Assembly (NCBI GenBank): GCA_964589975.1
Contig: CAZPVH010000001.1
Location: 23,214-87,213 of the forward strand
Source of the DNA: an uncultured Candidatus Saccharibacteria bacterium
GTDB taxonomy: Bacteria > Patescibacteriota > Minisyncoccia > Phycocordibacterales > CSBR16-119
Direction: 5' to 3'
Length of the DNA stretch: 64,000 nucleotides
The notes beneath the pieces are model-generated. The model was not told where the DNA came from. It was given only the letters and a program-made list of their open reading frames with translations, and did no database searches. Numbering within the stretch: position 1 is the first letter of the stretch; every line of letters starts with the position of its first letter. The translations under genes were made by a program, and so were the position numbers. Shown here piece by piece: positions 5,148 through 56,512 of this stretch.

Positions 5148-5156
5148 AGAAATGAA

Positions 5157-5190
5157 AAAGGCCCCCGACGAATCGAGGGCCTTTTAGAGG
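5157..5190 (-). terminator. terminator of the small high-GC ORF
   Basis: Minus strand: ggccctcgattcgtcgggggcc then TTTTTCATTT. Confidence 0.6.
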
Positions 5191-5200
5191 AGCACGCTCC

Positions 5201-5380
5201 TCAGTTGCCGATGCGCAGGTGACGTCCCTGGGCGAGGTGCTCGCTGATCGGCATTTCGCCGACGCCATCTTCCAGGATGACGAGGGACCTGCGGCCGATG
5301 TAGCGCTTTTCACCTGCGTTGGTGATGTCGCGGGCGGCGATGTCGAAGGAGCGGAGGGACTTCTTGGCGGTAGCTTTCAT
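5201..5380 (-). CDS. 59-aa hypothetical protein (MKATAKKSLRSFDIAARDITNAGEKRYIGRRSLVILEDGVGEMPISEHLAQGRHLRIGN), high-GC3
   Basis: ORF lies between a perfect TTGACA-N16-TATAAT promoter and a terminator. Third codon positions are about 85% G/C, indicating real coding in a foreign (high-GC) codon style. Below the track cutoff. Confidence 0.55.
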   Translation of the reverse strand: MKATAKKSLRSFDIAARDITNAGEKRYIGRRSLVILEDGVGEMPISEHLAQGRHLRIGN

Positions 5381-5406
5381 GTTCGTTGGTCTTTGATTTT
5401 GCTTAT

Positions 5407-5434
5407 ATTATACACATCCTAGTAGTTTTGTCAA
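5407..5434 (-). promoter_or_regulatory. consensus sigma70 promoter TTGACA-N16-TATAAT
   Basis: Minus strand: cTTGACAaaactactaggatgtgTATAAT; 26-nt leader to the ATG at 5380. Confidence 0.65.
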
Positions 5435-6328: not shown

Positions 6329-6358
6329 AAGACCCCTCACATTGTGTAGGGGTCTTTT
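6329..6358. terminator. bidirectional terminator (agacccctcacattgtgtaggggtct + T-run)
   Basis: Hairpin between convergent genes. Confidence 0.65.
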
Positions 6359-6855
6359 TGTTTTGCCGGGGTGATGGCATCAAAGAGCTGGCCTTGCTTT
6401 TCCTTGAGCTTACGCACGGCACTAGGAGTCAGTCTCTTTGGAAAGAGTTTCTTCATCTGAGCACGGTCACGCAGAAGCTGTACGAAGAGTTCGAACACAG
6501 GCTTGTATCGACTATCCAAAGGACTTCTCGTTGTGCGTCTTTGAAACACTTCCATGGCCGTTTCCACGAACAATACGTCATCAGACTTAGGTGGAAAAAG
6601 TTCAGGACAAACTTCTGTCTTCTGAGCCTTCTTCTTTGCCAAGAATTTCCGACGATGTTCGTCGTATGCCGAAGGGAAATGGTTTTCTCCAATAGCAAGG
6701 ACGCAGCGTACAAGCTCTCTCATTTTACCGTGGCTGAACGGGTCTTCAGGCTTATGACTTATTTGAGCGTGGTAGTGTCTCACTAGCACCGCATCCTTTA
6801 CTGGGTCGAAAGGAATGGTGTTCGAGAGCGTGTCTGATGGCTCTTGTTTCCTCAT
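6337..6855 (-). CDS. hypothetical protein, 172 aa
   Basis: Long ORF with its own TTGACC-N16-TAAGAT promoter and a downstream terminator; no recognisable family. Confidence 0.6.
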   Translation of the reverse strand: MRKQEPSDTLSNTIPFDPVKDAVLVRHYHAQISHKPEDPFSHGKMRELVRCVLAIGENHFPSAYDEHRRKFLAKKKAQKTEVCPELFPPKSDDVLFVETAMEVFQRRTTRSPLDSRYKPVFELFVQLLRDRAQMKKLFPKRLTPSAVRKLKEKQGQLFDAITPAKQKDPYTM

Positions 6856-6870
6856 GTGTCTTTTTCTTTT

Positions 6871-6898
6871 ATCTTAATCTTTTTTTGGTATAGGTCAA
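6871..6898 (-). promoter_or_regulatory. sigma70 promoter TTGACC-N16-TAAGAT
   Basis: Minus strand: aTTGACCtataccaaaaaaagatTAAGAT, 15 nt before the ATG at 6855. Confidence 0.5.
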
Positions 6899-6907
6899 TA
6901 AAGAGAG

Positions 6908-6936
6908 AAGCCCGCCGTGAGGCGGGCTTCCATGTG
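6908..6936 (-). terminator. terminator (gcccgccgtgaggcgggc)
   Basis: GC hairpin; T-run on the minus strand. Lies downstream of dnaE and the 108-aa ORF. Confidence 0.6.
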
Positions 6937-6941
6937 TTCAG

Positions 6942-7268
6942 TTAGGCTGGCTTCCAAGCGACGACAAACTTTGTTCGGTTTCGGCCTGCTTTTAAGGTCC
7001 GGAAAGTTCTGTCGGACGGATTGAAGAAGAGTGTTTGCTCAAGTTCGTACACTCTGGAATTCAATATCGCATAACGGTTACGTTGCCAGCGGGTCATCTG
7101 TCGTGCCTTGCACTGTACTCTCATAAAACAATCGGGGGGTCCGTTTTTGACATCAGTCCATTCATTGAGGGGCCTTACCGGGCCTGTTTTTCTAGGTCTA
7201 GGTGAACCAGTGCCGGGGCCACGAGAGTCTGCGCCGAAAAATCTGTGTTCGTTGTCTGGGAAGGGCAT
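6942..7268 (-). CDS. hypothetical protein, 108 aa (possibly co-transcribed downstream of dnaE)
   Basis: ORF between the dnaE stop and a terminator; no family recognised; could be non-coding. Confidence 0.3.
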   Translation of the reverse strand: MPFPDNEHRFFGADSRGPGTGSPRPRKTGPVRPLNEWTDVKNGPPDCFMRVQCKARQMTRWQRNRYAILNSRVYELEQTLFFNPSDRTFRTLKAGRNRTKFVVAWKPA

Positions 7269-7310
7269 GTGCTGTGGTTTTCAACCACTCTATCTCAAAC
7301 TAGATTCCTG

Positions 7311-10300
7311 TCAAATTTCTTTGACGTTGTCGATTATGATAGTGCGTTCGCCTTCGCGGATGTTTACTTTGCCTTTGATGGCAACAGTCTTGTCAGGCTG
7401 GAGCATGGCGACATATGTCTTCCAGGTTTCTGGAAAAGCGACAGCCTCGATTGTGCCCGAGAGGTCTTCGAGCTTAATAAAAGCCATCTGCTGATTTTTC
7501 TTCGTTACCAGAGTCTTTGTCGTTTGGATGATGACGGCGACAGCAACGACTTCGTCATTTCTACCGGACGTTCTAATTTTCAATAGATTCATTCCGCCCT
7601 TGTCGATTTTTTCTCGGACCTTATCAAGCGGATGTCCGGAAACGTAGAGCCCGAGGAGCTCTTTCTCCCAAGCTAGCATTACATCTTTTTCTGCTGGGGC
7701 AGAATCGGTGAGCGCGAGCTTTGATTTCGGCGCCAAGTCGCCACCAAAGAGACTTCCCTGATCTTTGTCTTGTTTTGAAAAAGATTTATTGAACTCAAGC
7801 AAGCCTTCAATGTTCGCAAGTAGATTTCCGCGTTCGCCGAAAGCGTCCATAGCGCCGGATTTAATCAGGGCTTCCAAGGATTTGCGGTTCAGGTTCTTGT
7901 GAGTGACACGCTCCAGAAAGTCCGGGAGGCTCTGGAACTTGCCGCGCTCTTTGCGCTCGGCGATGATCGCGTCGGAAATGTCTGTGCCGAGGTTCTTGAT
8001 CGTGTAGAAGCCGAAGCGGATTGCGTCTTTTTGTCCGGCCTCTTCAGCCTTGATCACGGTGAATCCGCCGAAACATTCGTTCAGATCTGGCGGCAGGACT
8101 TTTACGCCCATGCGCTCGCATTCGTGGATGATTTCGGAAACTTTTTCTACATCGCCGGACTCGGCGGTCAGGATGGCTGTCATGTATGGAACAGGGAAGT
8201 TCGCTTTCATGTAGCCGGTCTGGTAAGCAACGCGGCCGTAGCTTGCGGCGTGCGCTTTGTTGAATCCGTACGCCGCGAAAGGCTCAATAAGTAGCCAGAG
8301 CGCATCAGCTTTTTCTTTTGAGAGGCCGTTTTTTATAAAACCTGAAACTAGTTTTTCTTTCTCGGCGGCCATGACCTCAGGAATTTTTTTACCCATGGCC
8401 TTTCGGAGTTTGTCGGCTTCGAGCCAGCTGTAGCCCCCAAGATGAATGGCAATCAAGAGAACGTCATCTTGGTAAGTGATGACGCCATATGATTGAGAAA
8501 GAATTTCTTTCATCCTAGGATCGAGATATTTTATGAGGTGTGGATTTTGCTTGCGACGAATATATTCAGGAATAATCTCCATTGGGCCCGGACGATAGAG
8601 AGCCACCATGGCGTTTATGTCATCAATGATTGTTGGGCGTAGTTCCTTTAGATATCTTGTCATGCCAGAGCCATTTAGCTGGAAAAGACCTATGGTTTCT
8701 CCGCGGGCCAGCATCTCATAAGTTTTTTTGTCGTCCATTGGGATGTTTTCAATATCGACAATGACGCCTTCGATTTTTTCCACCAGTTTCACCGCGTCGG
8801 CAAGGATAGCCAAGTTTCTAATTCCCAGGAAGTCGAACTTGATGAGCCCGGCCGATTCGACGGCGTGCATGTCGTACTGCGTGATTATTTTTCCTCCCTT
8901 CGGATCGAGCTGGATCGGCGCGTAGTCGTCTACGCGTGTTGGTGAGATAACGACACCCGCAGCGTGGACGGAGATGTGGCGGGCGCAGCCTTCGATTTTT
9001 TTTGCCAAGTCGATGATTTCTTTTGTCGCTTTGTCTGTGTCGTATTGCTCTTTGAGTTCTGGAACCATCTTGAGGGCTTTGTCTATGGTCATGGCGAAGC
9101 CCTGCTTACCGAGGGGAATTAGTTTAGAAATTTTGTCGCCAACACCGTAGGGATAACCTAGAGCTCTGGCGACATCGCGGACGGATCCGCGGGCCATCAT
9201 GGTTCCAAATGTTCCGATTTGGGCGACAGCATCTTTGCCATATTTCTCTCGCGCATAATCAATCACTTCATCACGCCGATTATCGGCAAAGTCCATGTCG
9301 ATATCTGGCGCTGACGGACGCTCCGGGTTTAGGAATCGCTCGAAGGGGAGTTTGAAATGTAGTGGGTCAACATTCGTGATACCGAGGAGATATGTACATA
9401 TAGAGCCGGCGACCGATCCTCGGATGTTCGTCAATATTTTATTCTCTGAAGCGAAGCGGATCAGGTCTGCCACAATGAGTAGATAAATAGAGAAGCCTTT
9501 GTTCTTGATGATTTCAAGTTCGTACTCGATGCGTTTTTCGATCTCCTCACGACTCTCACCGTAGCGTCGTGGAATGCCCGCATAAACATATTTCCTGAGT
9601 TGTGACTCGGCGTCTTCGCCCGCCTCGAGTTCGAATTTTGGAAAAACCCATTTGCCGAGCTCAAGCTCGATGTTTACCATGTCAGCGACCTTCAAAGTAT
9701 TCTCTAGTGCTTCGGGTGTGTCAGAGAAAAACTTCAAAGCATTTTCTGGGTTAATGAAAGAGTAATCTCCGCCCATCTTCATGCCAGAGCCTTGGGTGTT
9801 GATGGCAAGTAGGGTGTTGTGTGCGTCTTTGTCGTCTTCATGGAGGTAATGAGAGTCCCATGTGGCGACGATCGGAATATTAAATTCTGCCGAGAGTTTT
9901 TTTACTCCAGCCTTTAAGACTTCGTACCCCTCCACTTCAGCGTGGCCCATGAGCTCTAAGAAAAAATTTTCTTTACCGAAGATGCTTTGGTATTTTTCGA
10001 TGATAGATTTTTGTTTGAGAGGATCGTTGGCACGGATAGCGTGAGCAAGCTCTCCGGCAGGACATCCAGAAAGACAAATAACACCTTCAGAGTATTGCCT
10101 CAGGAGCTCCTCATCCATTCGTGGTTTGTAGTAGTAGCCTTCGATGAACGACATGGAAACGAGCTTCATCAGGTTTTTATATCCCGCAATATTTTTTGCA
10201 AGAAGTGTTAGATGGTAACGCTTGGAGTCGATGTTTGATTCTTTGTCATGACGCGTACGCTCTGCGATGTAGGCTTCGACGCCGATGATCGGCTTGATGC

Positions 10301-10524: not shown

Positions 10525-11136
10525 ATGGAAACGAAATTTATTGTTGGAATTGATGAGGTTGGGCGTGGTCCGGTGGCAGGGCCGGTATATGTTTGCGCGT
10601 TTATAGCCGAGGCCTCAGCAATCGAAGGGATTGTCTCCGGTATAAAAGCGCCGCTTCGGGACTCGAAGAAGCTAACGCACAACATGAAAGAAAAATGGTT
10701 TGAATATCTCCAGGACTTGGCCGCCCAAAAGAAAATAAGATATGTGCTTTCTAAAACTTCGGCAAAAGAGATTGACGATCTCGGGATCGCATCTTGTATT
10801 AGAGCTTGTGTTGATAATTGCTTAGAAAAAATGGAAATTGATTTAGAAAATACAAAAGTATTCCTCGACGGTGGACTTCACGCTCACAAAAAATTCATTC
10901 AAGAAACCGTTATCAAAGGGGATGAAAATATTCCGGTAATCTCGCTTGCCTCGATCATAGCTAAAGTCTCGCGCGATAGGGAAATGACAGAACTGGCTGA
11001 GCTCAATCCGGAATATGCGTGGGAAAATAATATGGGCTACGGGACAAAGGCTCACATGGATGCTATTCGTATCCACGGGACCACACCGCTTCATAGAATC
11101 TCATTTTTAAGGAATATGACTGAAAAAGGGCAGTAG
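10525..11136 (+). CDS. rnhB: ribonuclease HII
   Basis: FIVGIDEVGRGPVAGPV motif. Start set at ATG 10525 (the track ORF overlaps dnaE). A -10-like TACTAT lies 7 nt upstream, suggesting a near-leaderless start. Confidence 0.93.
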   Translation: METKFIVGIDEVGRGPVAGPVYVCAFIAEASAIEGIVSGIKAPLRDSKKLTHNMKEKWFEYLQDLAAQKKIRYVLSKTSAKEIDDLGIASCIRACVDNCLEKMEIDLENTKVFLDGGLHAHKKFIQETVIKGDENIPVISLASIIAKVSRDREMTELAELNPEYAWENNMGYGTKAHMDAIRIHGTTPLHRISFLRNMTEKGQ

Positions 11137-11181: not shown

Positions 11182-11210
11182 TTGACTCAGAGGGTATTAT
11201 GTGATATGAT
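11182..11210 (+). promoter_or_regulatory. sigma70 promoter TTGACT-N17-TATGAT
   Basis: cTTGACTcagagggtattatgtgaTATGAT, about 45 nt upstream of the ATG at 11261. Confidence 0.55.
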
Positions 11211-11260
11211 GTAGCCAAGTGACCTTTGAGTAAAAAAACCAACAAACCTACCATAGAACG

Positions 11261-12253
11261 ATGAGAACCATCTTCACCCTCCTCGCCTTCGTGGCGACGT
11301 TCGGGCTTTGCGCCCAAAGCATTTCAGGCGACTGGAATGAATCTCACTACATCATGGGTACGCAAGGCAAGATCGAATACGACGAGTCCATCACGATCAA
11401 GCAGATCGTGAACGTCGGTAACGACTTGCCGCTCCAGCGGCGCGTCCGTTATCGGCATGGCGCCGGTGACTGGCAGTCGTTTCCTGGAGTTCCGGACACG
11501 GTCATCACCCAGAACTACACGTTCCATCGGGTGCTGAACGGCTTGTCATGGAGTCCCTACGACAACTACACTTGGGACATCGACATCCGGTACGTAAACA
11601 CTGGCGGCCAGGTGATCGAGGCGCTCCACAGCGAATGGAACAATATCGTAACCCGAGACAGTTCCAACGCAAGCATTGTGGCGTTTCCCGGTCCATACTC
11701 GAACGAATTGTATCTCCAATACGCCGTGTCCATACATAAAGACATGGGTCCCGGGATTGATACGGATGTGAACCTGCGGGCCGTTGGCCAATCATCCGGT
11801 ATGGTCTACAACGTCGAAGTCGACGTTCCGGATGCCGGACAGGAGTTCCAGACGGTTACCTTGTCTTTCACGCCTTGGTATACTGAGGACATCTGCGTGG
11901 AGATTTGGGTCGAGAGATCTGATCTCATATTCTACGACTACACCGACATCGTTGTCGGTTACGTAGATGTTTGGGTGCCCTGCACGATGTGGGACGGCAA
12001 CTCGACCGCTACCGGCGAGAAGCCTTCCATGCCTGACCTTCTGCCGTTCCCGAGCCCGACTTACGGATCCATCACGGTCCAAGAGCTTGATACGAACGAA
12101 CAGACGCTCGATGTGTACAGCCTGAACGGACAGTTGGTTGAACGTTTGCAGACCTATGGTTTGACAACAGTGACGCACGACTTCAGTAATCTGGCAGCCG
12201 GTGTTTACACCCTGCGCCAGAACGAACGTGCTGTGCGTTTCCAGAAGCTCTGA
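11261..12253 (+). CDS. secreted protein with a Por/T9SS-type C-terminal sorting domain (high-GC3 gene)
   Basis: Signal peptide ...FGLCA|QSIS. C-terminal ~70 aa (LDVYSLNGQLVERLQ...LAAGVYTLRQ...RFQKL) resembles the TIGR04183 Por secretion tail. GC and GC3 are clearly above neighbouring genes. Confidence 0.6.
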   Translation: MRTIFTLLAFVATFGLCAQSISGDWNESHYIMGTQGKIEYDESITIKQIVNVGNDLPLQRRVRYRHGAGDWQSFPGVPDTVITQNYTFHRVLNGLSWSPYDNYTWDIDIRYVNTGGQVIEALHSEWNNIVTRDSSNASIVAFPGPYSNELYLQYAVSIHKDMGPGIDTDVNLRAVGQSSGMVYNVEVDVPDAGQEFQTVTLSFTPWYTEDICVEIWVERSDLIFYDYTDIVVGYVDVWVPCTMWDGNSTATGEKPSMPDLLPFPSPTYGSITVQELDTNEQTLDVYSLNGQLVERLQTYGLTTVTHDFSNLAAGVYTLRQNERAVRFQKL

Positions 12254-12273
12254 TCTCCGCCAAGCGGAGTGAC

Positions 12274-12304
12274 GAAAGGCCCCCGAGTCTCGGGGGCCTT
12301 TTTC
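12274..12304 (+). terminator. terminator (ggcccccgagtctcgggggcc + T-run)
   Basis: Perfect hairpin and TTTTTCTTTT. Confidence 0.7.
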
Positions 12305-12337
12305 TTTTGGCTGCGCTCCCGTGTTACAATTCCTCTC

Positions 12338-14754: not shown

Positions 14755-16293
14755 TTGTATGTTGCTAAAATGTATCTAATGAAAAATCCTAAAAAAGGGG
14801 CGACAAAAAGGCTTGCCTATGGTGGAGTAGTTTTATTATTTATACTGGGTATGGCCGCGCTTGCAGCGTCGAGCTTTGGCCGAGATGCCTCACAACAGGC
14901 TGCAATTAGGATAAGTACAGATTCCCGCGAAACGCTCTGTACAGCGACTACCCCTCAATATTGCGGACGTATTGTTATTAGGAAAATTGTCAGCCCCTCT
15001 AGTTATCAGGACTTCTATTTCACACATAATGTCCCCGGCGTTACTTCTCCGTTAACTCTCGATGATGACGCAACTCTTTCAAGTCCTTCGGTACTAAGCA
15101 ATAGCTCTGTCCTCTTAACTCCGTTCAACGGGGTATTTTCTGTAGCAGAGATTACTGATCCTAATTACGAAACCTCTATTACTTGCACTGATCCATCTGG
15201 CGGTACAACGTCGAGCGGCTCTTCCGTGTCTATCAATATCTTGAATGGAGAGACGGTTCAGTGTGTGTTTACGAATACGAGAGTTATTGGGCAGGTGCCG
15301 ACCGGTACGGGTCCGACTACGAACCCGACGGATCCAGGAACACCTGGTACCGTCCTTACGAGCCCGAGCCCGGACAAAGTAAAAGCATGTCAATCAAATA
15401 CATGGACGCAGAGGGCAGACCTGCCTGGCATTCGAGCACAAAGTGCAGGCTTTTCGGTCGGTAGCAAAGGATATATTGGCACTGGATTTGCGTCTAGTCA
15501 GCTTACCGAATCATTTTTCCAGTATGATCCTGTCACGAACACCTGGACCCAAAAAGCGAATTTCGGAGGCGGTATTCGACACTCGGCAGTAGGTTTCTCG
15601 ATCGGCAGCATGGGTTATCTCGGTTTAGGCAAGAATGGATATGCAACAGTCCAGGATATGTGGGAGTATGATCCTGCTACCAATGTCTGGACCCAAAAGG
15701 CTGACTTTCCTCCAGGAGGACCGAGAACAGGGGCAACAGGTTTCTCTATTGGTACGAAAGGCTATGTAGGTCTCGGTAGGAATGCTTATTCAGCAACGCA
15801 GGATATGTGGGAGTATGATCCTGCTACAAATGTCTGGACGATCAAAGGATTCTTCGGTGGAGGGCCACGAATAGATCCCGTGTCCTTTTCAATCGGAAGC
15901 AAGGCTTATGTCGGTACAGGACTCGATGGAGCAACATTTAAGGATGATTTCTGGGAGTATGACCCTACCCAAGGAAGTCTCGGTACATGGACTCAAAAGG
16001 CTGATTTTGCTGGAGGAAATAGGGCTGAAGCCGCTGGATTCTCTATAGGCACCAAGGGATATGTCGGAATAGGGCGTGTAGCATATGACACCTCTGTATC
16101 TGTCAATGATTTTTGGGAGTATGATCCGGCTACCAATACCTGGACTCAAAAGGCGAATTTTGGAGGCACAGCCCGAAGTGCGGCGGTCGGTTTCTCAATC
16201 GGTTTGAGGGGCTATATGGGTACGGGTATTCCGACCGGTGTTGTAACTGCGGATGGTGGAATGTACAGAGATTTCTGGGAATATTGTCCGTAA
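14755..16293 (+). CDS. cell-surface protein: N-terminal anchor, prealbumin/CnaB-like domain, seven-bladed Kelch-type beta-propeller
   Basis: Seven repeats of about 49 aa (W.YDP.TN.WTQKA.F.GG.R....GFSIG.KGY.G.G). Start may be downstream (ATG 14770 or 14779). Confidence 0.8.
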   Translation: MYVAKMYLMKNPKKGATKRLAYGGVVLLFILGMAALAASSFGRDASQQAAIRISTDSRETLCTATTPQYCGRIVIRKIVSPSSYQDFYFTHNVPGVTSPLTLDDDATLSSPSVLSNSSVLLTPFNGVFSVAEITDPNYETSITCTDPSGGTTSSGSSVSINILNGETVQCVFTNTRVIGQVPTGTGPTTNPTDPGTPGTVLTSPSPDKVKACQSNTWTQRADLPGIRAQSAGFSVGSKGYIGTGFASSQLTESFFQYDPVTNTWTQKANFGGGIRHSAVGFSIGSMGYLGLGKNGYATVQDMWEYDPATNVWTQKADFPPGGPRTGATGFSIGTKGYVGLGRNAYSATQDMWEYDPATNVWTIKGFFGGGPRIDPVSFSIGSKAYVGTGLDGATFKDDFWEYDPTQGSLGTWTQKADFAGGNRAEAAGFSIGTKGYVGIGRVAYDTSVSVNDFWEYDPATNTWTQKANFGGTARSAAVGFSIGLRGYMGTGIPTGVVTADGGMYRDFWEYCP

Positions 16294-16302
16294 TTAAAAC
16301 AT

Positions 16303-16653
16303 ATGCAAAATATAAAAATAATAATTTTGGGAGTGCTAGTTCTGGTGGGAGTTGGATACGCCGCGTTTACAAAATTTCACAACACCGAAAAAGACGCTCC
16401 GAATCCGTATGAGAATTCTGAGATTATAGTAAATACTTTCGAGGAAGATACTGGCTGGGGCTATGACGTCATGATCGATGGCAACCTCTATGTCCATCAG
16501 CCGAACATTCCTGCTCTGGGTGGGAACAAAGGCTTCAAGACCGAAGCGGATGCTCGCGCGACAGGGAATCTCGCCACCCAAAAGATTCGTGACGGCATCA
16601 TTCCGCCGACCCTTACAGTTGAAGAACTGAAGCAAATCGGAGTTGTTCAGTAG
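16303..16653 (+). CDS. small membrane-anchored protein, DUF4907-like
   Basis: N-terminal TM, then GWGYDVMIDGNLYVHQPNIPALGGNKGF...ELK, resembling the Bacteroidetes DUF4907 family. Called from memory, not searched. Confidence 0.55.
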   Translation: MQNIKIIILGVLVLVGVGYAAFTKFHNTEKDAPNPYENSEIIVNTFEEDTGWGYDVMIDGNLYVHQPNIPALGGNKGFKTEADARATGNLATQKIRDGIIPPTLTVEELKQIGVVQ

Positions 16654-19823: not shown

Positions 19824-19892
19824 ATAGACTATTGCGTTTCCAGCATCGACCCCGTGGTAGTACAATAGAAGAAAACCAAAAGATCTTTCCAA

Positions 19893-20699
19893 ATGAGAGC
19901 TCTGGTGTCGGTGTTTATGCTGGCCGTACTAACAAGTCCGGTCGGCGCGCAGAAGTTGCAGCTCGAAACTATTTTACGGCAGCCGCCGAAAGACTCCGTG
20001 CAGGTGGTGTGCGAAGTTTCCGCGCATCTCAAATTGACGCATGTGAAGCCCTCGACCATCTACAAGATGCAAACAAAGACAATGTCTTTGGTGCCAGACG
20101 AGAAGCCGAAAGACTATCGCTGTTTGCCAAAGGGTCGCATGGGTTTGCTTGTCAACACCAAAGCCGATCCTTATGCCGTTCTGCAGCCGCATATCTTTTT
20201 CGAGATCGCGGGGTTACCGACGCATTTGTCGACAAAGATGGCTGTCGGGGTGATGGACAGGAACATGGGTTTTGCCTGTGGAGTGTTCACCGGCCAGTAC
20301 ATGAGGAGGGTTGATGACTATGGCGATGTTACCTATCGCGCCAAGCAATTTGAAGCGGGATGGCATCGCGGTCTCTACCTCTTTGCCGATCAGCCTGGAT
20401 TCGTTTTCTTTTTCTCGTATGCGAGAGAGAAGACTTTCCATTATTTCGACACGTCGATCGGATGCAAAGCCGGAGAAATGTTGCGATTAGGGCCAGCGCT
20501 TTCTGGTCTGGGTGTCCAGGCGGAATTCGAGTCTTATCTCGGAGCCGGCGGGGGCCTGTCGTACCGATTGCCTAGTGGTAAATTTTCCGGCAGTATCTCG
20601 TATCTGGTTCCAGGCCTCGCTGAGATCAATCGCGAACGAGCCATTGGTCTCATTGTCGAAAACGGACTTCTGGTCCGTCTCCGAGCTCTTTGCTTCTAG
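19893..20699 (+). CDS. secreted protein, possible beta-barrel/OMP-like (high-GC3 gene)
   Basis: Signal peptide ...SPVGA|QKLQ; C-terminus ...LRALCF (terminal Phe); GC-rich with C-ending codons. Confidence 0.55.
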   Translation: MRALVSVFMLAVLTSPVGAQKLQLETILRQPPKDSVQVVCEVSAHLKLTHVKPSTIYKMQTKTMSLVPDEKPKDYRCLPKGRMGLLVNTKADPYAVLQPHIFFEIAGLPTHLSTKMAVGVMDRNMGFACGVFTGQYMRRVDDYGDVTYRAKQFEAGWHRGLYLFADQPGFVFFFSYAREKTFHYFDTSIGCKAGEMLRLGPALSGLGVQAEFESYLGAGGGLSYRLPSGKFSGSISYLVPGLAEINRERAIGLIVENGLLVRLRALCF

Positions 20700-20701: not shown

Positions 20702-20740
20702 TTGCTGAAGCCCCCGCGCCGTGGCGCGGGGGCTTTTTCG
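20702..20740 (+). terminator. terminator (gcccccgcgccgtggcgcgggggc + T-run)
   Basis: Long GC hairpin. Confidence 0.7.
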
Positions 20741-28295: not shown

Positions 28296-28352
28296 AAAAT
28301 TTGAAATTAAACTGATAACCCTAAACTCATATTAACATAGTATAATGGCGGG

Positions 28353-28988
28353 ATGGAAATAATCGCCTTATCATGCTCGCCGTCCCGCGGCAGAAATTCT
28401 GACCAGATGCTGGACCACTTTATTTTGGGAGCGAAAGAGATCTCGGGAATACAGATCGAAAAAATTTACCTCAGTGATATTCCGATTGATTATTATTCTT
28501 ATGAAAATAGTCGCGGTACAGGTGTACACGAGGAAAAATTCGCCGCTCTATCGGAGAGGATTAAAAAAGCCGAAGGACTTGTGATTGCCACACCAACATA
28601 TAATTTTTCGGTGCCAGCTCATCTCAAGAATTTTATCGACCGTATACGTTTCATCGCGCTAGACTTGAATCATAAGAACGGTCTCGGGCAGCCGGTAGGG
28701 AAGCTTGGCCACTTGCGAACCTATTTCCTTGTTTCGGGAGGCACGCCGACCTGGGCGGAAAAAATTCTATTCTTCGCCTTTCCGGCCTTTTGGCTTCGCG
28801 GGGTATTTCTGTATTTTGGAGCGAAAGTCATGGGTGCTATATACACCGGAAATGTCAGATCATTCGAGGATAAATCTCTTCATGAGAAATGTCGCAAAGC
28901 TGGAAAGAAATATGCTCAAAAAGTTTTGACTGGTCACAGCCATGGATTCCTCGAAGACATCTTCTGGCGTCCGCCACAGGTTAAATAA
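28353..28988 (+). CDS. NAD(P)H-dependent FMN reductase-like flavoprotein
   Basis: LVIATPTYNFSVPAHLKNFIDR matches the FMN_red motif. TATAAT -10 lies 12 nt upstream of the ATG. Confidence 0.7.
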   Translation: MEIIALSCSPSRGRNSDQMLDHFILGAKEISGIQIEKIYLSDIPIDYYSYENSRGTGVHEEKFAALSERIKKAEGLVIATPTYNFSVPAHLKNFIDRIRFIALDLNHKNGLGQPVGKLGHLRTYFLVSGGTPTWAEKILFFAFPAFWLRGVFLYFGAKVMGAIYTGNVRSFEDKSLHEKCRKAGKKYAQKVLTGHSHGFLEDIFWRPPQVK

Positions 28989-28990: not shown

Positions 28991-29404
28991 TTACCCGAAT
29001 CTCTCGTTATATTTTTCTTTACTGAGTTCTATGAGCCTATTTAGTCTGCCGTCCATGCCGCTGCCATTTAATAGGTGTCGCAAGAATAGACTGTCATCAT
29101 AATTTGAACTGTTTTGAGGCAGGACGTAAATATTATTCATTTCTGTATCGTCACCAAAAACTATCTTGATGCCTTCGTCCTTCATTCTCTCGATGATCTT
29201 GTCTACTGGCGTGGCAAGTCCCGGGTAGCCCTCGAATTTTTCTTCTTCGGCTTTTATCTCGGCATACAAGGCCGGCTCAATCCCAGGAAAAGGGAAACCA
29301 TCAGCCGACTCTTTTAGCTCTGAAGCAAGCATTACGAATTCACGCTTATTTGCCCATTCCTTCTTTTCTTCTTTCTTCGGTAACCCCGGACCTTTTTCAT
29401 TCAT
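28991..29404 (-). CDS. hypothetical protein, 137 aa
   Basis: Clean ORF; no family recognised. Confidence 0.6.
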   Translation of the reverse strand: MNEKGPGLPKKEEKKEWANKREFVMLASELKESADGFPFPGIEPALYAEIKAEEEKFEGYPGLATPVDKIIERMKDEGIKIVFGDDTEMNNIYVLPQNSSNYDDSLFLRHLLNGSGMDGRLNRLIELSKEKYNERFG

Positions 29405-29427
29405 GTGACAAATTATACCAAAGAAAA

Positions 29428-30853: not shown

Positions 30854-31390
30854 ATGCAGAAGCTCACTTACAGACATCTTCAGGTCGGCAAGGTGTATAA
30901 CAGGGTCTATACGGGACCGAACGAAGCCTACGCTGCAATCAACGGCAAGGAGACGTTTCGTGTCATCTCAGTCGAGCCGAATCTCGTCTGCCAGATCCTC
31001 TTCGATCAGTTCGGCAGCCCGATGGAGAAAGAGATCACCGGCGGTCACATTACGTTCCCCGTGCCAGAAAAAGCCTTCGAGGAGTTCGACATCTTTACAG
31101 CGCCTGACCGGAACGACTGGTTCATCAAGTCGGCCATCATGACGGTCGCCGATGCCTTGGAGCAGGGGTTCATCACGATGGATATGGCCAAGCAGTCCGC
31201 GCTTCACGTGACTTGCTATAACTGGGGCGATGCGTTCTACATGTCGTGCCAAGTTGACGAAAGTCGTCGCCCGAAGCAGAACCCGTACTTGCAAACTGTC
31301 TTCTTCGTCTGGAAGAGCCACAAGGAAATGGAGGACGATCTCTTGGAGAACAAGGTGGCAACACGTGTTAAATCCAAGGCAGAGTCTTAG
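30854..31390 (+). CDS. hypothetical protein, 178 aa (GC-rich gene)
   Basis: ORF with C-ending codon bias; terminator downstream. Confidence 0.6.
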   Translation: MQKLTYRHLQVGKVYNRVYTGPNEAYAAINGKETFRVISVEPNLVCQILFDQFGSPMEKEITGGHITFPVPEKAFEEFDIFTAPDRNDWFIKSAIMTVADALEQGFITMDMAKQSALHVTCYNWGDAFYMSCQVDESRRPKQNPYLQTVFFVWKSHKEMEDDLLENKVATRVKSKAES

Positions 31391-31412: not shown

Positions 31413-31445
31413 AAGTAAAAAGCCCGCCTTCCGGCGGGCTTTTCT
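31413..31445. terminator. bidirectional terminator (gcccgccttccggcgggc)
   Basis: GC hairpin between convergent genes. Confidence 0.7.
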
Positions 31446-35103: not shown

Positions 35104-35135
35104 GAGCCAATTATATCAAAAACTGAAACTATGTG

Positions 35136-35207
35136 CTCCCCGGGTAGGGATCGAACCTACGACCTTAGAGTTAACAGCTCTCTGCTCTACCGCTGAGCTA
35201 CCGGGGA
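35136..35207 (-). tRNA. tRNA-Asn (anticodon GUU)
   Basis: Reverse complement folds as a cloverleaf: acceptor UCCCCGG/CCGGGGA, U8, D-arm GCUC..GAGC, anticodon loop CUGUUAA, T-arm GUAGG-UUCGAUC-CCUAC, discriminator G. U1:A72 as in E. coli tRNA-Asn. CCA not encoded. Confidence 0.9.
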
Positions 35208-42627: not shown

Positions 42628-43233
42628 CTACTCGCTGTAATGGTACTCTCCAGGATTAATGTCTAGGGTGTCTACAGGAAGGAGGCGAATCAGGGCCTTG
42701 CCGACAATGTTCTTTCTAGGAAGCACTCCCCATGTTCGTGAATCAGAACTCGCTATGCGGTTATCACCCATAACAAAGTATTCATCATCTTTTAATTCAA
42801 CAGACATGGTGTCGTGACTCTCTCTTTCCATATCGAGATATGGCTGATCCAGGATGAAGTCTTCTCCATCTGCCTTAGTGATCGTGATGGCGCCCTGCTT
42901 AATGGATATCGTCTCGTTAGGCATGCCTATGACCCTTTTTATGAAAAACTTAGACGGATCAAGAGGGTATTTGAAAATAACGACATCGCCGCGAGCTGGC
43001 TCTTCGAATCTGTATGAAATCTGGTCGACGATTAGATACTGATTGTCTTTGAAGGTCGGAAACATTGAAGACCCAGAAACTATAAAAGGCTGAGCTACCA
43101 GCATGCGGATAGGGAGGACAACTATGATGGCGATAAAGATGAAACGGAGGAGTTCCCAGAAGCCGTCTTTGCTTGCCGGCTTAGCCGGAAGCTCATTTGT
43201 GGGTTCTCTGTATTGATTTTCTTGGTCTATCAT
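42628..43233 (-). CDS. lepB: signal peptidase I
   Basis: S26 motifs SGSSMFPT and GDNRIASSDSR. Confidence 0.9.
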   Translation of the reverse strand: MIDQENQYREPTNELPAKPASKDGFWELLRFIFIAIIVVLPIRMLVAQPFIVSGSSMFPTFKDNQYLIVDQISYRFEEPARGDVVIFKYPLDPSKFFIKRVIGMPNETISIKQGAITITKADGEDFILDQPYLDMERESHDTMSVELKDDEYFVMGDNRIASSDSRTWGVLPRKNIVGKALIRLLPVDTLDINPGEYHYSE

Positions 43234-43258
43234 GGCGATATTATATCACGAAAAAGAC

Positions 43259-47828: not shown

Positions 47829-49880
47829 ATGGCGGCAGACACGGTAACATACTTCGCTGAAACTGATTTTCGCGGAGAAAAAAGATCATTCGGAATCAAG
47901 AACGAGGACAGATCTCGGCATGTTTATGTTATTGGAAAGACCGGTATGGGTAAGTCGACACTCCTCGAGAACTTGGCCGCCCAGGATATTCAAAACGGCG
48001 AGGGTATGTGCTTCATCGATCCTCACGGCTCGGCAATCGACACACTGCTAGAATATATTCCCGAGGAGCGCATAAAAGATGTCGTCTATTTCGCGCCGTT
48101 TGACTCTGACTTTCCGATTTCATTTAACGTTATGGAAGACGTGGGCGCTGATCAGCGCCACCTAGTTGTGTCGGGGCTCATGTCTGCCTTTAAAAAAATC
48201 TGGGTCGACGCCTGGTCGGCCAGAATGGAACACATTTTGAATAATACAATTCTCGCGCTTTTGGAGTACCCGGGCTCGACCTTGCTTGGCGTGAACCGGA
48301 TGTACGCGGACAAGGGCTTCCGCGAAGAAGTCGTTTCAAAAGTCACCGACCCTGGAGTTAAAAGCTTTTGGAACGAAGAGTTCGCCAAATGGGATGAAAG
48401 ATTCATGCGCGAAGCGACGGCTGCTATTCAAAACAAGATCGGCCAATTTACTTCTAATCCTCTCATTCGAAACATTGTCGGCCAAGGACATTCGAGTTTC
48501 GATATCCGAAAGCTGATGGACGAAAAGAAGATATTCTTAGTGAACCTTTCAAAAGGACGCATCGGCGAACAGAATGCCGGACTTCTTGGCGCCATGATCG
48601 TAACGAAAATCTACTTGGCGGCTATGTCCCGCGCTGACGTTACCAAGTCCGCTATGTCGCAATTACCTCCGTTTTTCCTTTTTGTCGACGAATTCCAAAA
48701 CTTTGCAAACGACTCCTTCTCCGATATTTTGGCGGAGGCGCGAAAGTATAAATTAAATCTAACAATCGCGCACCAATACATTGAACAGATGGAAGAATCT
48801 GTTCGCGATGCTGTATTCGGCAACGTCGGTACAACCATTTCTTTTCGCGTTGGACCACTCGATGCGGAGGTCCTTGAGAAGATTTTCTTGCCGACATTTA
48901 CAGCTGAAGACATTGTCAATCTGGGTAAATACCAGATCTATCTGACGCTGATGATTGATGGAGTTGGGTCAAAGCCGTTCTCGGCAACCAACATGGCGCC
49001 GCTAAAGAAGAAGACAGTCACTTATAGAAATGAGGTTATTGAATTTTCTCGCGCGACGTATGCTCATAACCGCGGTGAGGTTCAAGGCGGAATCGAAGCT
49101 TGGCATGCAAATAATTATGAAACCGGAAAGGATAAAAAGGAACGCGAAAAGAAAGAAGCGTATCTAGCCGAGAAGGCTCAAAAAGAAAAATTACTTTATG
49201 GTGATAATCCGCCTCCTCCCGGGCCAGCCAAGATTCAAATCCCAGATGATATTGTTAAGAAGATTTCTGAAAAGCGCCCTCCGGGATCTACTGAGTACGG
49301 CAGCCGACCGCGCGAAGAAAAGCCGGTCGCTTCACCAAGCCGCGACAATCGACCTTTCCAGAAAGCGCTGACTGAAATTAGGTCTACGCCTCAAAACATA
49401 CCAAAACCTAATGTTTCTCTTGACGGGTCTAGTGGTCGCGTGAGTCAGGGGGGAGGCGCTGTTCAGCAGCACAATAATTTGAATAGGCCACGGGTAGATG
49501 TTCCTCGCCCCGCAAGTAATCAGCCGGCCCAGAATCAGCCATTTAGAAAGCTTGATCCGAAAATCGCTACCGACAAGAATAAAAGCCTTTTGAAGGATGT
49601 ACTTTCGCGCGCGCTTGAAAAGATGCCAGCCGCACAAAAAATCGCGCAAGCGGAAAATACTTCTGAAAATAAATCGACTTCTTCGATTGACATTGTCGCT
49701 CCCATAAATCAGCCAGAAATTACTCCAATCAAAAAAGATGCTCCGGCGCAGCTTAACGCCAATGCTCCTACAAATCTCGATTTTTCAAAACGAGAAGAGG
49801 ACAAGAGAACTGAAGAGTCAGATAAGCCGAAAAAACCTAGAGAAATTCCTGAAGATGTTCTAAAACAAATATTGGAATAA
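47829..49880 (+). CDS. VirD4/TraG/TraD-like type IV coupling-protein-family ATPase (FtsK/HerA superfamily), soluble, with a ~280-aa disordered C-terminal tail
   Basis: Walker A VIGKTGMGKSTL, Walker B FLFVDEFQNF, T4CP-like all-alpha region. No N-terminal TM. C-terminus Pro/Lys/Glu-rich. Confidence 0.7.
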   Translation: MAADTVTYFAETDFRGEKRSFGIKNEDRSRHVYVIGKTGMGKSTLLENLAAQDIQNGEGMCFIDPHGSAIDTLLEYIPEERIKDVVYFAPFDSDFPISFNVMEDVGADQRHLVVSGLMSAFKKIWVDAWSARMEHILNNTILALLEYPGSTLLGVNRMYADKGFREEVVSKVTDPGVKSFWNEEFAKWDERFMREATAAIQNKIGQFTSNPLIRNIVGQGHSSFDIRKLMDEKKIFLVNLSKGRIGEQNAGLLGAMIVTKIYLAAMSRADVTKSAMSQLPPFFLFVDEFQNFANDSFSDILAEARKYKLNLTIAHQYIEQMEESVRDAVFGNVGTTISFRVGPLDAEVLEKIFLPTFTAEDIVNLGKYQIYLTLMIDGVGSKPFSATNMAPLKKKTVTYRNEVIEFSRATYAHNRGEVQGGIEAWHANNYETGKDKKEREKKEAYLAEKAQKEKLLYGDNPPPPGPAKIQIPDDIVKKISEKRPPGSTEYGSRPREEKPVASPSRDNRPFQKALTEIRSTPQNIPKPNVSLDGSSGRVSQGGGAVQQHNNLNRPRVDVPRPASNQPAQNQPFRKLDPKIATDKNKSLLKDVLSRALEKMPAAQKIAQAENTSENKSTSSIDIVAPINQPEITPIKKDAPAQLNANAPTNLDFSKREEDKRTEESDKPKKPREIPEDVLKQILE

Positions 49881-49903
49881 TTATAATTAAATAAAAGTTT
49901 TAT

Positions 49904-51331
49904 ATGTTTGATAGAAACATTATCTTCAAAGCTTTATTAATAGGTGGGTTTTTGGTGTTACCGATAATTACTCGAGCTGAAGTTTTAGTCACAGAGCTTG
50001 CTTGGATGGGTACGACAGTTTCTGCAAATGACGAATGGATTGAGATATATAACAGTGGTGGAGAGTCGGTAAGTCTTACCGGTTGGACACTCACGGCTTC
50101 AGACGGAACTCCAAGCATTACATTGTCTGGCTCAATCGGCGCGGGAGAATACAAACTACTGGAACGTACAGACGATACAACATATCCGGGGATTACGGCC
50201 CATCAGATATTTACTGGAGCACTCGCAAATGAAGGAGAGAATCTCTCGCTCAAAGATAACGGAGCAGTGGTCCAATCAATGCCATTTTCTAGCGGATGGC
50301 CAGCAGGTGATTCGGTCACAAAGAAAACGATGCAATGGACGGGCTCTGCTTGGGTAACCGCTGATGAAACTGCGGGAAGCGCTACAACTGCTACATCAAG
50401 TGAGGAAGAAGAGGAGAATCAAGAAGAAGAGACAGGCGGAGAAGAAGAGGAGAATAATGAAGAGGAAGATGAGGAAGAGGTTGTAACTATAGCAACCGGA
50501 AGTCATACTGCACCAAAGCGAACGGTCTATGATGATATGGTTTTCGAACTTGATTTCCCGACGCGAGCTGTGGCAGGTAGCCCTGTGCGTTTTAGCGCTC
50601 AAGCTCTTGATTTTGATCGCACGAAACTCAGAAAAGGGAAATATATTTTCAACATGGGCGATGGAACTGTCCGAACTTTCAGTAAGGACTGGAACGGTAA
50701 GAGTGTCGGTTTCTTTTATCATGCGTATGATCACCCCGGTACGTATCAGATCTCGATAAAATACTACATGACAGTTTTCGAGGATTTACCGCCAGAAGTA
50801 GAAGATACTTGGACAATCGAAGTTTTGGCGCCGAGTATTTCTATTTCAAGAATCATGAATGATGGTTCAGTCGAGATGAAGAATATGTCGACTGGGGCTG
50901 TAGATATTTCTAAATGGGTTCTTTCTGATAATTCGGGTAGGAAATTCGAAATCCCCGACGGCTCGGTGATATTGGGAGGCAAGACCGTCGTCTTTGATTC
51001 CAGCACGACGCATTTCGTGGCGGGCGGGATTATTAGCCTCTCAACACCAACCGCCGCTCACGTGGCTTCTTCCATGGCGCTAAGGCCGGTTTCTTCTTAC
51101 AAGCCGACCAGCGTAAAATCCAAAACAGAACAGAAGGAAACCACGGGTGAAGTATTGGGAGTTAGTTCAGCTAGCCCTGCCGAAGATACCGCTATTGCAG
51201 AAGTAAAAGAAAAACCCGGCGCTTTAGTCTGGGTTCTTCTCTTTATAATTCTGGTCTTGGCATCCGTCATTGCCGTTCTTCTCTTGAAAAGGGAAGAACA
51301 CAAAGAAGAATATCTTCTAATCGACGAATAA
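49904..51331 (+). CDS. lamin-tail-domain (LTD) surface protein with an acidic E-rich linker and a C-terminal TM anchor
   Basis: Signal peptide; LTD 1 ITELAWMGT..NDEWIEIYNSG..VSLTGWTL; poly-Glu linker; LTD 2 with KWVLSDNSG; C-terminal TM + basic tail. Confidence 0.75.
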   Translation: MFDRNIIFKALLIGGFLVLPIITRAEVLVTELAWMGTTVSANDEWIEIYNSGGESVSLTGWTLTASDGTPSITLSGSIGAGEYKLLERTDDTTYPGITAHQIFTGALANEGENLSLKDNGAVVQSMPFSSGWPAGDSVTKKTMQWTGSAWVTADETAGSATTATSSEEEEENQEEETGGEEEENNEEEDEEEVVTIATGSHTAPKRTVYDDMVFELDFPTRAVAGSPVRFSAQALDFDRTKLRKGKYIFNMGDGTVRTFSKDWNGKSVGFFYHAYDHPGTYQISIKYYMTVFEDLPPEVEDTWTIEVLAPSISISRIMNDGSVEMKNMSTGAVDISKWVLSDNSGRKFEIPDGSVILGGKTVVFDSSTTHFVAGGIISLSTPTAAHVASSMALRPVSSYKPTSVKSKTEQKETTGEVLGVSSASPAEDTAIAEVKEKPGALVWVLLFIILVLASVIAVLLLKREEHKEEYLLIDE

Positions 51332-51332
51332 T

Positions 51333-52583: not shown

Positions 52584-52587
52584 TTTA

Positions 52588-53103
52588 TTAGTAGTATTCT
52601 CGCATTACTTTCTTCAATTTGTCGATCGACCGGTGAATCTTTACGGATACGTTATTCGGGGTCATTCCTGTGGCTTCGCTGATTTCCTTGATCGAGAGCT
52701 CGTTGACGTACCTCATGGTGAGCATCTCTCGGGCCTCTTCGTCTAGCTCATCTAATTTTCCGATCACGAATTTCTTGTCGAACTCAAGCTCTGTCACCTC
52801 TATCTCATCTTCTCCACTAAACTCTACTCCGGTTTCAGTGATGGCGTCCAAGGAGTAGGTCTTTTTCTTCCGCCGGTAATCGATTATGAGGTTTTTGGCG
52901 ACTTTGTATAAAAAGGCTTTGATGTTGTCTATGTCCTTGCCGTCTGACAAATATCCCCATGTTTTCATGAAAGTGTCTTGAACCATATCGACTGCAACCT
53001 CTCGGTTCGAAGTCTGGAAATGGCAATAGCGAAGAATTGCATCCGAATGGTCTTCGTAGCTCTTCATGAAAATATCCTTAATTTCTATATGATCTTTCGC
53101 CAT
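52588..53103 (-). CDS. ECF-type sigma-70 family RNA polymerase sigma factor
   Basis: Region 2 (DMVQDTFMKTWGY) and region 4 HTH (LSIKEISEATGMTPNNVSVKIHR). Confidence 0.85.
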   Translation of the reverse strand: MAKDHIEIKDIFMKSYEDHSDAILRYCHFQTSNREVAVDMVQDTFMKTWGYLSDGKDIDNIKAFLYKVAKNLIIDYRRKKKTYSLDAITETGVEFSGEDEIEVTELEFDKKFVIGKLDELDEEAREMLTMRYVNELSIKEISEATGMTPNNVSVKIHRSIDKLKKVMREYY

Positions 53104-56026: not shown

Positions 56027-56419
56027 TCATATGGTCGACTCGTTATCTGCGTCAGCAGGTCTGGCAATCAGCTTCTTGCCGGGTGTGATCGAAGTCGAGT
56101 AACCCTGCTCGGACTTGTACATCTGGATGGGGTCGTCTACAACGAAGAGGCTGATCTCGGTACCGACCGGAAGAGGATCTCCTTCGAAGAAGATCGGACC
56201 AACCTTGTCCATGAAGTCGTCGTAGTAATAGGCTTGGCTGGGCCAGCCACCGATCGCCATATAGAAGTTCGTATCGAGCGGATTCTTCTTCAGCGTGTAT
56301 GTTTTTTCGCTGAAGTAAGGCTTCATGGTCGAAGTTTTGGACTCCATGACCGAAACGGACTCATGACTTCCGCAGCTTGCGAGGAGTGCTATGCATGCAG
56401 TGAAAAGGACTGTTCTCAT
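56027..56419 (-). CDS. lipoprotein (lipobox LLASC), high-GC3 gene
   Basis: Signal peptide with L-A-S-C lipobox; GC-rich codon usage. Confidence 0.6.
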   Translation of the reverse strand: MRTVLFTACIALLASCGSHESVSVMESKTSTMKPYFSEKTYTLKKNPLDTNFYMAIGGWPSQAYYYDDFMDKVGPIFFEGDPLPVGTEISLFVVDDPIQMYKSEQGYSTSITPGKKLIARPADADNESTI

Positions 56420-56470
56420 GTGTGTTTGTTTTGCCCTCTATTTTGCATATCAAAACTCATTTGTCAAAGA

Positions 56471-56500
56471 AAAGACCCCCAGCCATGCCGGGGGTCTTCT
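56471..56500 (-). terminator. terminator (gacccccggcatggctgggggtc)
   Basis: Hairpin; followed on the minus strand by TTGACA. Confidence 0.6.
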
Positions 56501-56512
56501 AAAGTTCTGTGG

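Follow-up and report, generated by a model that had tools for sequence, protein, structure and literature searches.

A gene for a recombining, putative surface protein with a T9SS-type sorting domain, probably native to a Paceibacteria-like Patescibacterium

The gene unit considered here occupies positions 11182–12304 on the forward strand of the window (the whole 64,000-nucleotide stretch of bacterial DNA that was analysed), and its single open reading frame (ORF) of 330 aa ends in a C-terminal sorting domain (CTD) of the type carried by cargo of the type IX secretion system (T9SS). An earlier note had grouped this ORF with six others that are rich in G + C at third codon positions (GC3) and had read these seven ‘cassettes’ as Bacteroidetes-like, horizontally acquired cargo. 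We consider it likely that this single-gene unit is native to a Paceibacteria-like Patescibacterium, a member of the candidate phyla radiation (CPR), in which it has been inherited vertically, and that it encodes a recombining protein of surface or host interaction. Its features, all on the forward strand, are as follows.

11182–11210 (+), sigma70-type promoter with −35 TTGACT, a 17-nt spacer and the extended −10 TGTGATATGAT
11217–11260 (+), A/C-rich 5′ leader of about 44 nt, its start placed from the −10 box
11261–12253 (+), CTD-gene ORF of 330 aa, forming a complete single-gene transcription unit
11261–11314 (+), signal peptide (Sec, signal peptidase I), aa 1–18 (MRTIFTLLAFVATFGLCA), from the sequence
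11315–11317 (+), codon of Gln19, the predicted mature +1 residue (Q-rule position), from the family alignment
11318–12010 (+), two fast-evolving FN3/Ig-like beta-sandwich passenger domains, about aa 20–135 and 136–250
12013–12015 (+), recombination breakpoint near codon 251 at the passenger/CTD junction, from maximum chi-square and segment identities
12038–12250 (+), T9SS type A C-terminal sorting domain, about aa 260–330, a seven-stranded beta-sandwich
12255–12269 (+), small hairpin CTCCGC-caa-GCGGAG immediately 3′ of the stop codon, read from the sequence
12274–12310 (+), intrinsic terminator, a 13-bp stem (12274–12302) with 8 GC pairs, then a T-run

The promoter and the terminator that the earlier note had placed at the two ends of the unit are both present. 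The promoter (TTGACT-17-TATGAT with an upstream TG) scored 10/12 in the promoter scan, and in DNA alignments its stretch is almost identical in the related lineages L002 and L003, the core being almost invariant across these two and the window. The leader, signal-peptide codons, last codons and terminator also align as DNA in these three, and both the −10 box and the terminator can still be made out in the lineages L091 and L094. The terminator is kept at five orthologous loci with compensatory changes in four pairs. No Shine–Dalgarno motif was found in the leader, which is predicted to be unstructured (no consensus pairs among five orthologs by RNAalifold). The MAFFT/RNAalifold alignment did not resolve the stop-proximal hairpin at 12255–12269; hairpins of differing sequence stand at the matching place between stop codon and terminator in L091 (about 11032–11052) and L094 (about 11077–11095).

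In all five lineages examined (the window, L002, L003, L091 and L094, which represent different samples) the gene lies directly upstream of GDH–DUF2914. On the upstream side it borders on RNase HII in the window and L003, TruB lies in between in L091 and L094, and the L002 contig ends upstream of the gene. The family protein is only 27–46% identical between lineages as against 81–94% for DnaE, 74–86% for GDH and 67–87% for DUF2914, and its non-synonymous divergence (dN) is 0.49–0.65 compared with 0.03–0.15 in the flanking genes, whose synonymous divergence (dS) is saturated (above 2 or not computable). The passenger changes 4–15 times faster than the neighbouring proteins; the elements conserved in the family are the control elements, the signal peptide, the +1 Gln, two Cys and the CTD. 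A word-indexed search of 5.8 billion indexed proteins returned two close homologs of the 330-aa protein, and an exhaustive hidden Markov model (HMM) search of 1.84 billion representatives found about 14 full-length family members of about 330 aa, sharing 21–46% identity and 11 invariant columns, Gln19 among them, with a nearly invariant Ala at −1. About 680 further proteins in the same set match via the CTD alone, at the C-termini of otherwise unrelated proteins, and no homolog of the passenger domains was found there outside the family.

Up to about codon 251 the window allele is closer to L002 (171 versus 99 informative sites) and from there on to L003 (69 versus 15), the maximum chi-square of 53 being reached in none of 1000 permutations. 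In domain 2 the family member P0001 pairs with P0002 and P0003 with P0131, and in the CTD P0001 pairs with P0003 at 71%. The breakpoint together with these incongruent segment identities indicates that alleles of the family have been shuffled between lineages at the passenger/CTD junction. The GC3 of the gene in the window is 0.71, compared with 0.43–0.55 in its neighbours RNase HII, GDH, DUF2914 and DnaE, and it is 0.62–0.71 in every ortholog although the surrounding genomes stand at about 0.45, 0.49, 0.50, 0.55 and 0.56; as synonymous sites in the flanks are saturated, the high GC3 must be actively maintained and is not a leftover of transfer.

The TIGR04183-like CTD proposed for this gene was confirmed in three ways: two curated HMMs score higher than their cut-offs, a PDB sequence matches, and the fold agrees. 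Residues 263–324 match PF18962 with 35.7 bits (gathering cut-off 27) and TIGR04183 with 28.5 bits (cut-off 23), the family profile matches the C-terminus of PDB 5jvk_A (E 1.4e-5), and the domain runs to the final residue, that is, to the extreme C-terminus of the protein. The motifs FPxPT.G, DVY..G.LV, AGVY.LRQ and RFQKL are kept among the closest members (P0001–P0003), and the GxY core is invariant in all 14. An AlphaFold model built from the 14 family members (mean pLDDT, the predicted local distance difference test, 82.9) is all-beta and has three domains, of which the two passenger domains are FN3/Ig-like and the C-terminal one is a seven-stranded sandwich. The fold given for type A CTDs is a seven-stranded Ig-like 3 + 4 beta-sandwich (PMC11285876), and the C-terminal domain as modelled has this fold. 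In structure it comes closest to the T9SS CTDs of Tannerella, Porphyromonas and Flavobacterium, and it is genuinely homologous to the type A CTDs of the T9SS. The likeness of the passenger domains to tandem FN3/Ig proteins (RbmA, Bap, cytokine receptors) is at the level of fold only (Foldseek). It should be noted that an earlier AF2 model from three sequences (pLDDT 46), for which the Foldseek matches to Fab were meaningless, was discarded and replaced by the 14-sequence model.

Gln at the +1 position of mature secreted proteins (the Q-rule) was described as specific to Bacteroidetes and not even general to the Fibrobacteres–Chlorobi–Bacteroidetes (FCB) group (Bochtler et al. 2018, PMC5837995), and a later paper links the rule to the stability of extracytoplasmic proteins (mBio 2023, PMC10653852). 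The +1 Gln is an invariant column in our family (14/14), and all four cassettes with a signal peptide of the signal peptidase I type have the A|Q sites reported for them (CA|QS, GA|QK, NA|QT and KA|QG). The accompanying statement that host-like secreted proteins have no +1 Gln holds inside the window only, as A|Q is also found in the relatives’ LTD protein (L084) and in several proteins resembling type IV secretion system (T4SS) pilins (L087 and L089), those in L089 having a GC3 of only 0.20–0.29. The observation that was to count against a foreign origin, +1 Gln in host-like secreted proteins too, was therefore made in part, in low-GC3 secreted proteins of relatives. A crude signal-peptide finder, written for this analysis and blind to the +1 residue, placed Gln at 12 of the 38 sites that it predicted in clade DNA and at 4 of 109 in 1.29 Mb of unrelated control loci (Fisher p = 1.7e-5), the clade sample being small and including orthologs of the same proteins; the clade DNA holds four further near-misses in which an AQ site adjoins the predicted one. 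A Q-rule across the clade, as suggested by these predicted sites, is a lead and not proof. Among the CTD-only matches 24 of 49 predicted signal peptides have +1 Gln, which fits a Bacteroidota origin of the closest CTDs. No match to glutaminyl cyclase (PF05096, M28-type) was obtained among the seven cassettes and 30 further window proteins (Pfam). Two observations on secreted proteins of the clade may be added. A conserved block at 47829–53103, shared with L084, L087 and L089, encodes a T4SS coupling-ATPase-like protein, an LTD/PKD surface protein, a DUF5667 protein and an extracytoplasmic function (ECF) sigma factor, and further downstream in L087 and L089, beyond gyrA, come runs of secreted proteins that resemble T4SS pilins (PF18895), several of them with A|Q.

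The relatives of YchF (54879–55973) at 80% identity are labelled Patescibacteria group bacterium and those at 67–68% Ca. Paceibacterota and Ca. Nomurabacteria, and the window has CPR-typical content (an LTD protein, DUF2914, the T4SS coupling-ATPase-like protein and many small N-terminally anchored proteins). Judged by these genes the window is that of a Paceibacteria-like Patescibacterium, and the bacterium is tiny and probably host-attached. A contig scan with GDH as query found at most 53% identity to any GTDB species representative, so that this lineage is not among the representatives reached by that scan. Shine–Dalgarno-like motifs stand ahead of 4 of 49 ordinary genes in the window as against 12.6% of random positions, whereas a −10-like hexamer ends 4–13 nt before the ATG in 24 of 49 (7% at random positions); the genome appears from these counts to be largely leaderless and not to use Shine–Dalgarno motifs. 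With about half of the ordinary genes leaderless-looking under a −10 box of their own and Shine–Dalgarno motifs not in use, the sigma70 promoters are the lineage’s own, and the mismatch with Bacteroidetes promoters that had been thought notable disappears, the promoters being native and conserved. The cassettes differ from ordinary genes only in having the best promoter matches, followed by a short unstructured leader. Leaderless-type examples lie at 28330–28355, 29404–29420, 43233–43250 and 57895–57915. Base composition within the clade evolves unusually fast (L084, L087, L089, L091, L094, L003 and L085 compared); genomic GC3 ranges from 0.29 (L089) to 0.68 (L084), with YchF 85–93% identical to that of the window. 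The sole tRNA of the window is at 35135–35207, nothing else being matched in the Rfam search.

The six other cassettes are these.

5201–5380 (−), 59-aa ORF with no signal peptide, GC3 0.83; perfect promoter 5434–5407, terminator 5185–5156
19893–20699 (+), 268-aa secreted protein, VGA|QK, GC3 0.60; weak promoter 19837–19866, strong terminator 20707–20736
30854–31390 (+), 178-aa ORF with no signal peptide, GC3 0.74; terminator 31417–31444
56027–56419 (−), 130-aa lipoprotein-type product with an LLAS|C lipobox, GC3 0.66; promoter 56467–56440 (10/12)
56513–57052 (−), 179-aa secreted protein, ANA|QT, GC3 0.73; perfect promoter 57098–57071
57324–57731 (−), 135-aa secreted protein, SKA|QG, GC3 0.74; perfect promoter 57780–57753, terminator 57128–57106

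The high GC3 claimed for the seven ORFs was borne out, their values of 0.60–0.83 comparing with a mean of 0.504 (sd 0.065, maximum 0.64) for the 54 other genes of the window. The separation is nearly complete (Mann–Whitney p = 1.2e-5, a post hoc value as the ORFs had been picked for GC3). At four-fold sites of the cassettes C and G are both raised, G reaching 0.22–0.38 in five of the seven, and G-ending two-fold purine codons are raised too; in the putatively well-expressed genes for S1, HisS and DnaE, C is raised and G is low (0.09–0.15). Promoter and terminator scans covered positions 1–60000. All three perfect (12/12) promoters in the scan precede cassettes, those of 5201–5380, 56513–57052 and 57324–57731, and two further cassettes (11261–12253 and 56027–56419) have promoters scoring 10/12, so that the consensus promoter attributed to every cassette is found at five of the seven, the exceptions being 19893–20699 (9/12) and 30854–31390 (none flagged). 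Similarly, a GC-rich hairpin directly follows six of the seven as had been stated, but the nearest to 57324–57731 is about 200 nt downstream. Pfam and NCBIfam gave no match for any cassette except the CTD gene, PHROGs gave none, and no mobility genes, no tRNA target and no flanking repeats other than the promoters themselves were seen at the cassettes. The six occupy variable gaps between conserved genes, and four encode exported proteins; they are genes of the same kind, that is, small, orphan, strongly promoted and individually terminated accessory genes. High GC3 is a maintained trait of the class, as it is kept in orthologs despite saturated synonymous divergence and differing genomic GC.

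The 19893–20699 cassette has an ortholog in L091 that is 31% identical, has a G|Q site and adjoins BacA. The terminal Phe of this protein had been taken as a hallmark of outer-membrane beta-barrels, but this was rejected as there is no match in Pfam or NCBIfam at E ≤ 1 and no PDB sequence match, and the L091 ortholog ends in ...WVQLL, with Leu in place of a Phe that is not conserved. Three cassettes form an islet between YchF and a Lactamase_B_3 gene, an interval that holds two in each of L084, L085 and L087 and is empty in L089, and orthologs within it are 29–37% identical compared with 86–93% for YchF. The lipoprotein-type 56027–56419 has a 30% identical ortholog in L087, and 57324–57731 has orthologs in L085 (37%) and L084 (29%). 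No homolog of the 179-aa protein was found by the word-indexed search, its positional counterparts in L084, L085 and L087 being recovered via synteny; that in L084 is 34% identical over the full length, and those in L085 and L087 can be aligned only at the signal peptide and the ‘AQT..DLP’ start. The cassettes of the islet (56440–57790) are spaced 631 and 682 nt apart, each opening with a near-identical −35 region (TTGACAAAT, minus strand) right after the terminator of the preceding one, and this regular head-to-tail arrangement of promoter–gene–terminator modules is visible in the relatives’ islets too. The promoter itself is the sole repeat inside the islet. For 5201–5380 no homolog was found in Pfam, NCBIfam, PHROGs or a further homology search; the unit (5156–5434) has the most extreme GC3, with C at 74% of four-fold sites, and could encode a small protein or be a non-coding transcript. 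No family match (Pfam, NCBIfam, PHROGs) was found for 30854–31390.

The reading of the earlier note is borne out in part: the hallmarks (Q at +1 and a T9SS-type CTD) and the contrast in composition stand, recent acquisition does not. A recent transfer from Bacteroidota, with GC3, +1 Gln and CTD as un-ameliorated donor traits, would account for the GC3 outliers, for the homology of the CTD to T9SS CTDs, for the empty YchF islet in L089 and for the +1 Gln that about half of those CTD-only relatives predicted to have a signal peptide share with Bacteroidetes (PMC5837995). Against it stand the syntenic orthologs of the CTD gene in five lineages with saturated flank dS, the native promoters and terminators conserved as DNA, the lack of any passenger homolog outside the clade among the 1.84 billion representatives, the +1 Gln in native low-GC3 proteins of relatives and the absence of mobility genes and flanking repeats, so that we regard it as very improbable, and for the CTD gene it is already contradicted. 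A recent island should be absent from relatives or differently placed in them, and here the CTD gene is syntenic in five lineages and the YchF islet is occupied in three of four relatives; neither mobility genes nor a tRNA target nor flanking repeats were found; and the atypical composition, which is present, persists across saturated dS and so gives no evidence of recent arrival. The cassettes are old residents of the lineage and not recently imported DNA. An assembly or binning artefact that had stitched Bacteroidota fragments into a CPR contig would explain the compositional contrast and nothing else, and has practically no chance of being correct: an independent Logan assembly has the same junctions, as have relatives from at least five other samples, the DNA between the genes is conserved and runs on without a break, and the Logan contig (L001), identical to the window over 8.9 kb with the same gene order, excludes chimerism. 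An ancient capture of the CTD module, or perhaps of whole genes, from a Bacteroidota-like donor, with later domestication under native promoters, is a different matter, as it concerns origin only and is compatible with the unit being native today. We hold such a capture to be possible, at somewhat less than even chances. The CTD scores above curated thresholds and has its best structural matches in Tannerella, Porphyromonas and Flavobacterium, a CTD occurs in one gene only within about 190 kb of clade DNA, and a more distant relative (L095, the sole locus obtained from two metagenome contig scans with DUF2914 as query) has DUF2914 without the GDH/family gene pair; on the other side no donor-like full-length homolog was found, and Ig-like sandwiches can be very old.

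For the maintained GC3, GC-biased gene conversion at recombining loci, expression-linked codon selection or both could be responsible, and gene conversion of this kind would raise silent-site G and C alike, matching the pattern seen. Translational selection alone, acting in very highly expressed genes whose consensus promoters, enhancer-like CA-rich leaders and strong terminators would mark top expression, we think rather unlikely. It would agree with the placing of all three perfect promoters at cassettes, with the C-ending two-fold codons at 0.72–0.90 in six of the seven (S1 0.78, PyrH 0.72) and with the raised GC3 of other genes that have A/C-rich leaders (PyrH, HAD), but not with the low four-fold G of S1, HisS and DnaE set against that of five of the seven cassettes, nor with the cassette proteins being those that evolve fastest, as highly expressed proteins usually evolve slowly.

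If the unit is read as a native surface-protein gene, its product would be exported by Sec and cut by signal peptidase I, and the exposed Gln could cyclise to pyroglutamate, which would shield the N-terminus from aminopeptidases as in Bacteroidetes. The protein may then act in surface or host contact (adhesin-like) under diversifying selection, with the CTD serving as an anchoring or recognition module that has a conserved partner. As CPR cells are generally described as having no outer membrane, the CTD is probably not used in classical T9SS export, and it may be an anchoring module. The T9SS is not known outside diderms of the FCB group, and the closest named YchF relatives of the present bacterium are Patescibacteria group, Ca. 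Paceibacterota and Ca. Nomurabacteria. That the clade has its own pathway of T9SS-like or otherwise CTD-dependent sorting, in which a translocon or sortase of the CPR envelope recognises the CTD, would explain why P0001 and P0003 are 71% identical in the CTD and 33% in the passenger and why the canonical CTD motifs are kept, the two together implying a conserved partner. Such a pathway is nevertheless very improbable, as no T9SS family matched among the seven cassettes (Pfam, NCBIfam) or 30 further window proteins (Pfam only), CPR cells are described as having no outer membrane, the T9SS is not known outside FCB-group diderms, and the literature searched contains no paper linking T9SS or Por_Secre_tail, or indeed glutaminyl cyclase, with Patescibacteria. 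A second CTD gene was not found in the roughly 190 kb of clade DNA with a local CTD HMM. Something of a long shot is the proposal that a Paceibacteria-like subclade adopted the extracytoplasmic grammar of Bacteroidota (secretome-wide +1 Gln and a CTD on a hypervariable adhesin) because it lives on Bacteroidota hosts. The pyroglutamate cap would in that case protect surface proteins of the epibiont from the host’s abundant exopeptidases, and the CTD, useless for export where there is no outer membrane, would dock on the host’s surface-exposed T9SS shuttle and attachment proteins (PorV/PorU/PorZ), a mimic of host cargo put to use in attachment to the Bacteroidota cell. Were this proposal true, the Q-rule would be known outside Bacteroidetes for the first time, and the host range of CPR bacteria could in part be read from sequence.

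Several points weigh against the view of the unit, and of the cassettes with it, as native genes for recombining surface proteins. The 64-kb window, part of a contig of at least 329 kb, and about 150 kb of relatives’ DNA showed no T9SS component, no PorU-like sortase and no glutaminyl cyclase. The passenger has no homolog whose function is known, so that the role is drawn from fold and evolutionary pattern alone, and because dS is saturated diversifying selection is not separable from relaxed constraint. Two of the ORFs (5201–5380 and 30854–31390), with no signal peptide and no detected orthologs, are grouped with the rest by composition and architecture alone. The four-fold profile of the cassettes, with C and G both up, is unlike that of S1, HisS and DnaE and speaks against simple translational selection.

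Other variable genes lie elsewhere in the window. A further islet at 6337–7314, downstream of dnaE, contains a 108-aa ORF (6942–7268, −) with a 10/12 promoter (7314–7287) and a strong terminator (6931–6906), for which L003 has, at that place, a 143-aa ORF unrelated to it and with a GC3 of 0.71. Beside the 108-aa ORF, a 172-aa gene (6337–6855, −) is only 45% identical to its L003 ortholog as against 94% for DnaE. A membrane-anchored Kelch-repeat/SpaA-like protein at 14755–16293 is followed by a small DUF4907 protein at 16303–16653 (E 1.3e-19). DUF4907 is mostly annotated in Bacteroidota, and this protein may be another link of Bacteroidota type.

To our knowledge hosts and modes of attachment are unknown for almost all Patescibacteria except a few cultured Saccharibacteria and one archaeon-parasitising Paceibacteria-type strain, and the present family of putative Ig-like surface proteins, which is restricted to one clade, recombines and looks strongly expressed, offers a concrete candidate for host-contact machinery. 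Secreted proteins that bear a CTD or follow the Q-rule have not been described before in this phylum in the literature searched. Two leads follow, namely whether a CPR clade also obeys the Q-rule, which was published as specific to Bacteroidetes, and what role a T9SS sorting domain has in a cell type thought to be without an outer membrane. A GC3 outlier, furthermore, need not be foreign DNA, since the outlying composition here persists through saturated divergence and goes together with recombination inside the gene.

Of known systems the nearest at the C-terminus is T9SS cargo with a type A CTD (PF18962/TIGR04183), such as mirolase of Tannerella forsythia, RgpB and PorZ of P. gingivalis and NucA of F. 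johnsoniae. The present gene differs in that its host is a Patescibacterium, its promoter is native and of sigma70 type, its passenger is a clade-restricted FN3/Ig-like pair without homologs elsewhere, no T9SS machinery was seen among the seven cassettes and the 30 other window proteins scanned, and there is one CTD gene in about 190 kb of clade DNA where Bacteroidota carry tens per genome. The likeness to the Bacteroidetes Q-rule lies in signal peptidase I sites exposing a Gln that is invariant in the 14-member family, and the difference in the host being a CPR clade, in which pyroglutamate formation is presumed by analogy. Matrix or adhesion proteins of the Vibrio cholerae RbmA and staphylococcal Bap type share the tandem FN3/Ig-like folds (Foldseek E 2.6e-5 to RbmA), but at 9–12% identity, which amounts to no sequence similarity, and with low TM-scores this is a generic beta-sandwich resemblance and not membership. 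In its organization the locus is like the antigen-type hypervariable loci of host-dependent bacteria, with a conserved promoter, signal peptide and C-terminal module around a diverging middle and with mosaic alleles that break at a domain junction in a fixed chromosomal position; it is unlike them in that no silent donor copies or repeats are seen in the window, so that exchange appears to take place between lineages and not within the genome.

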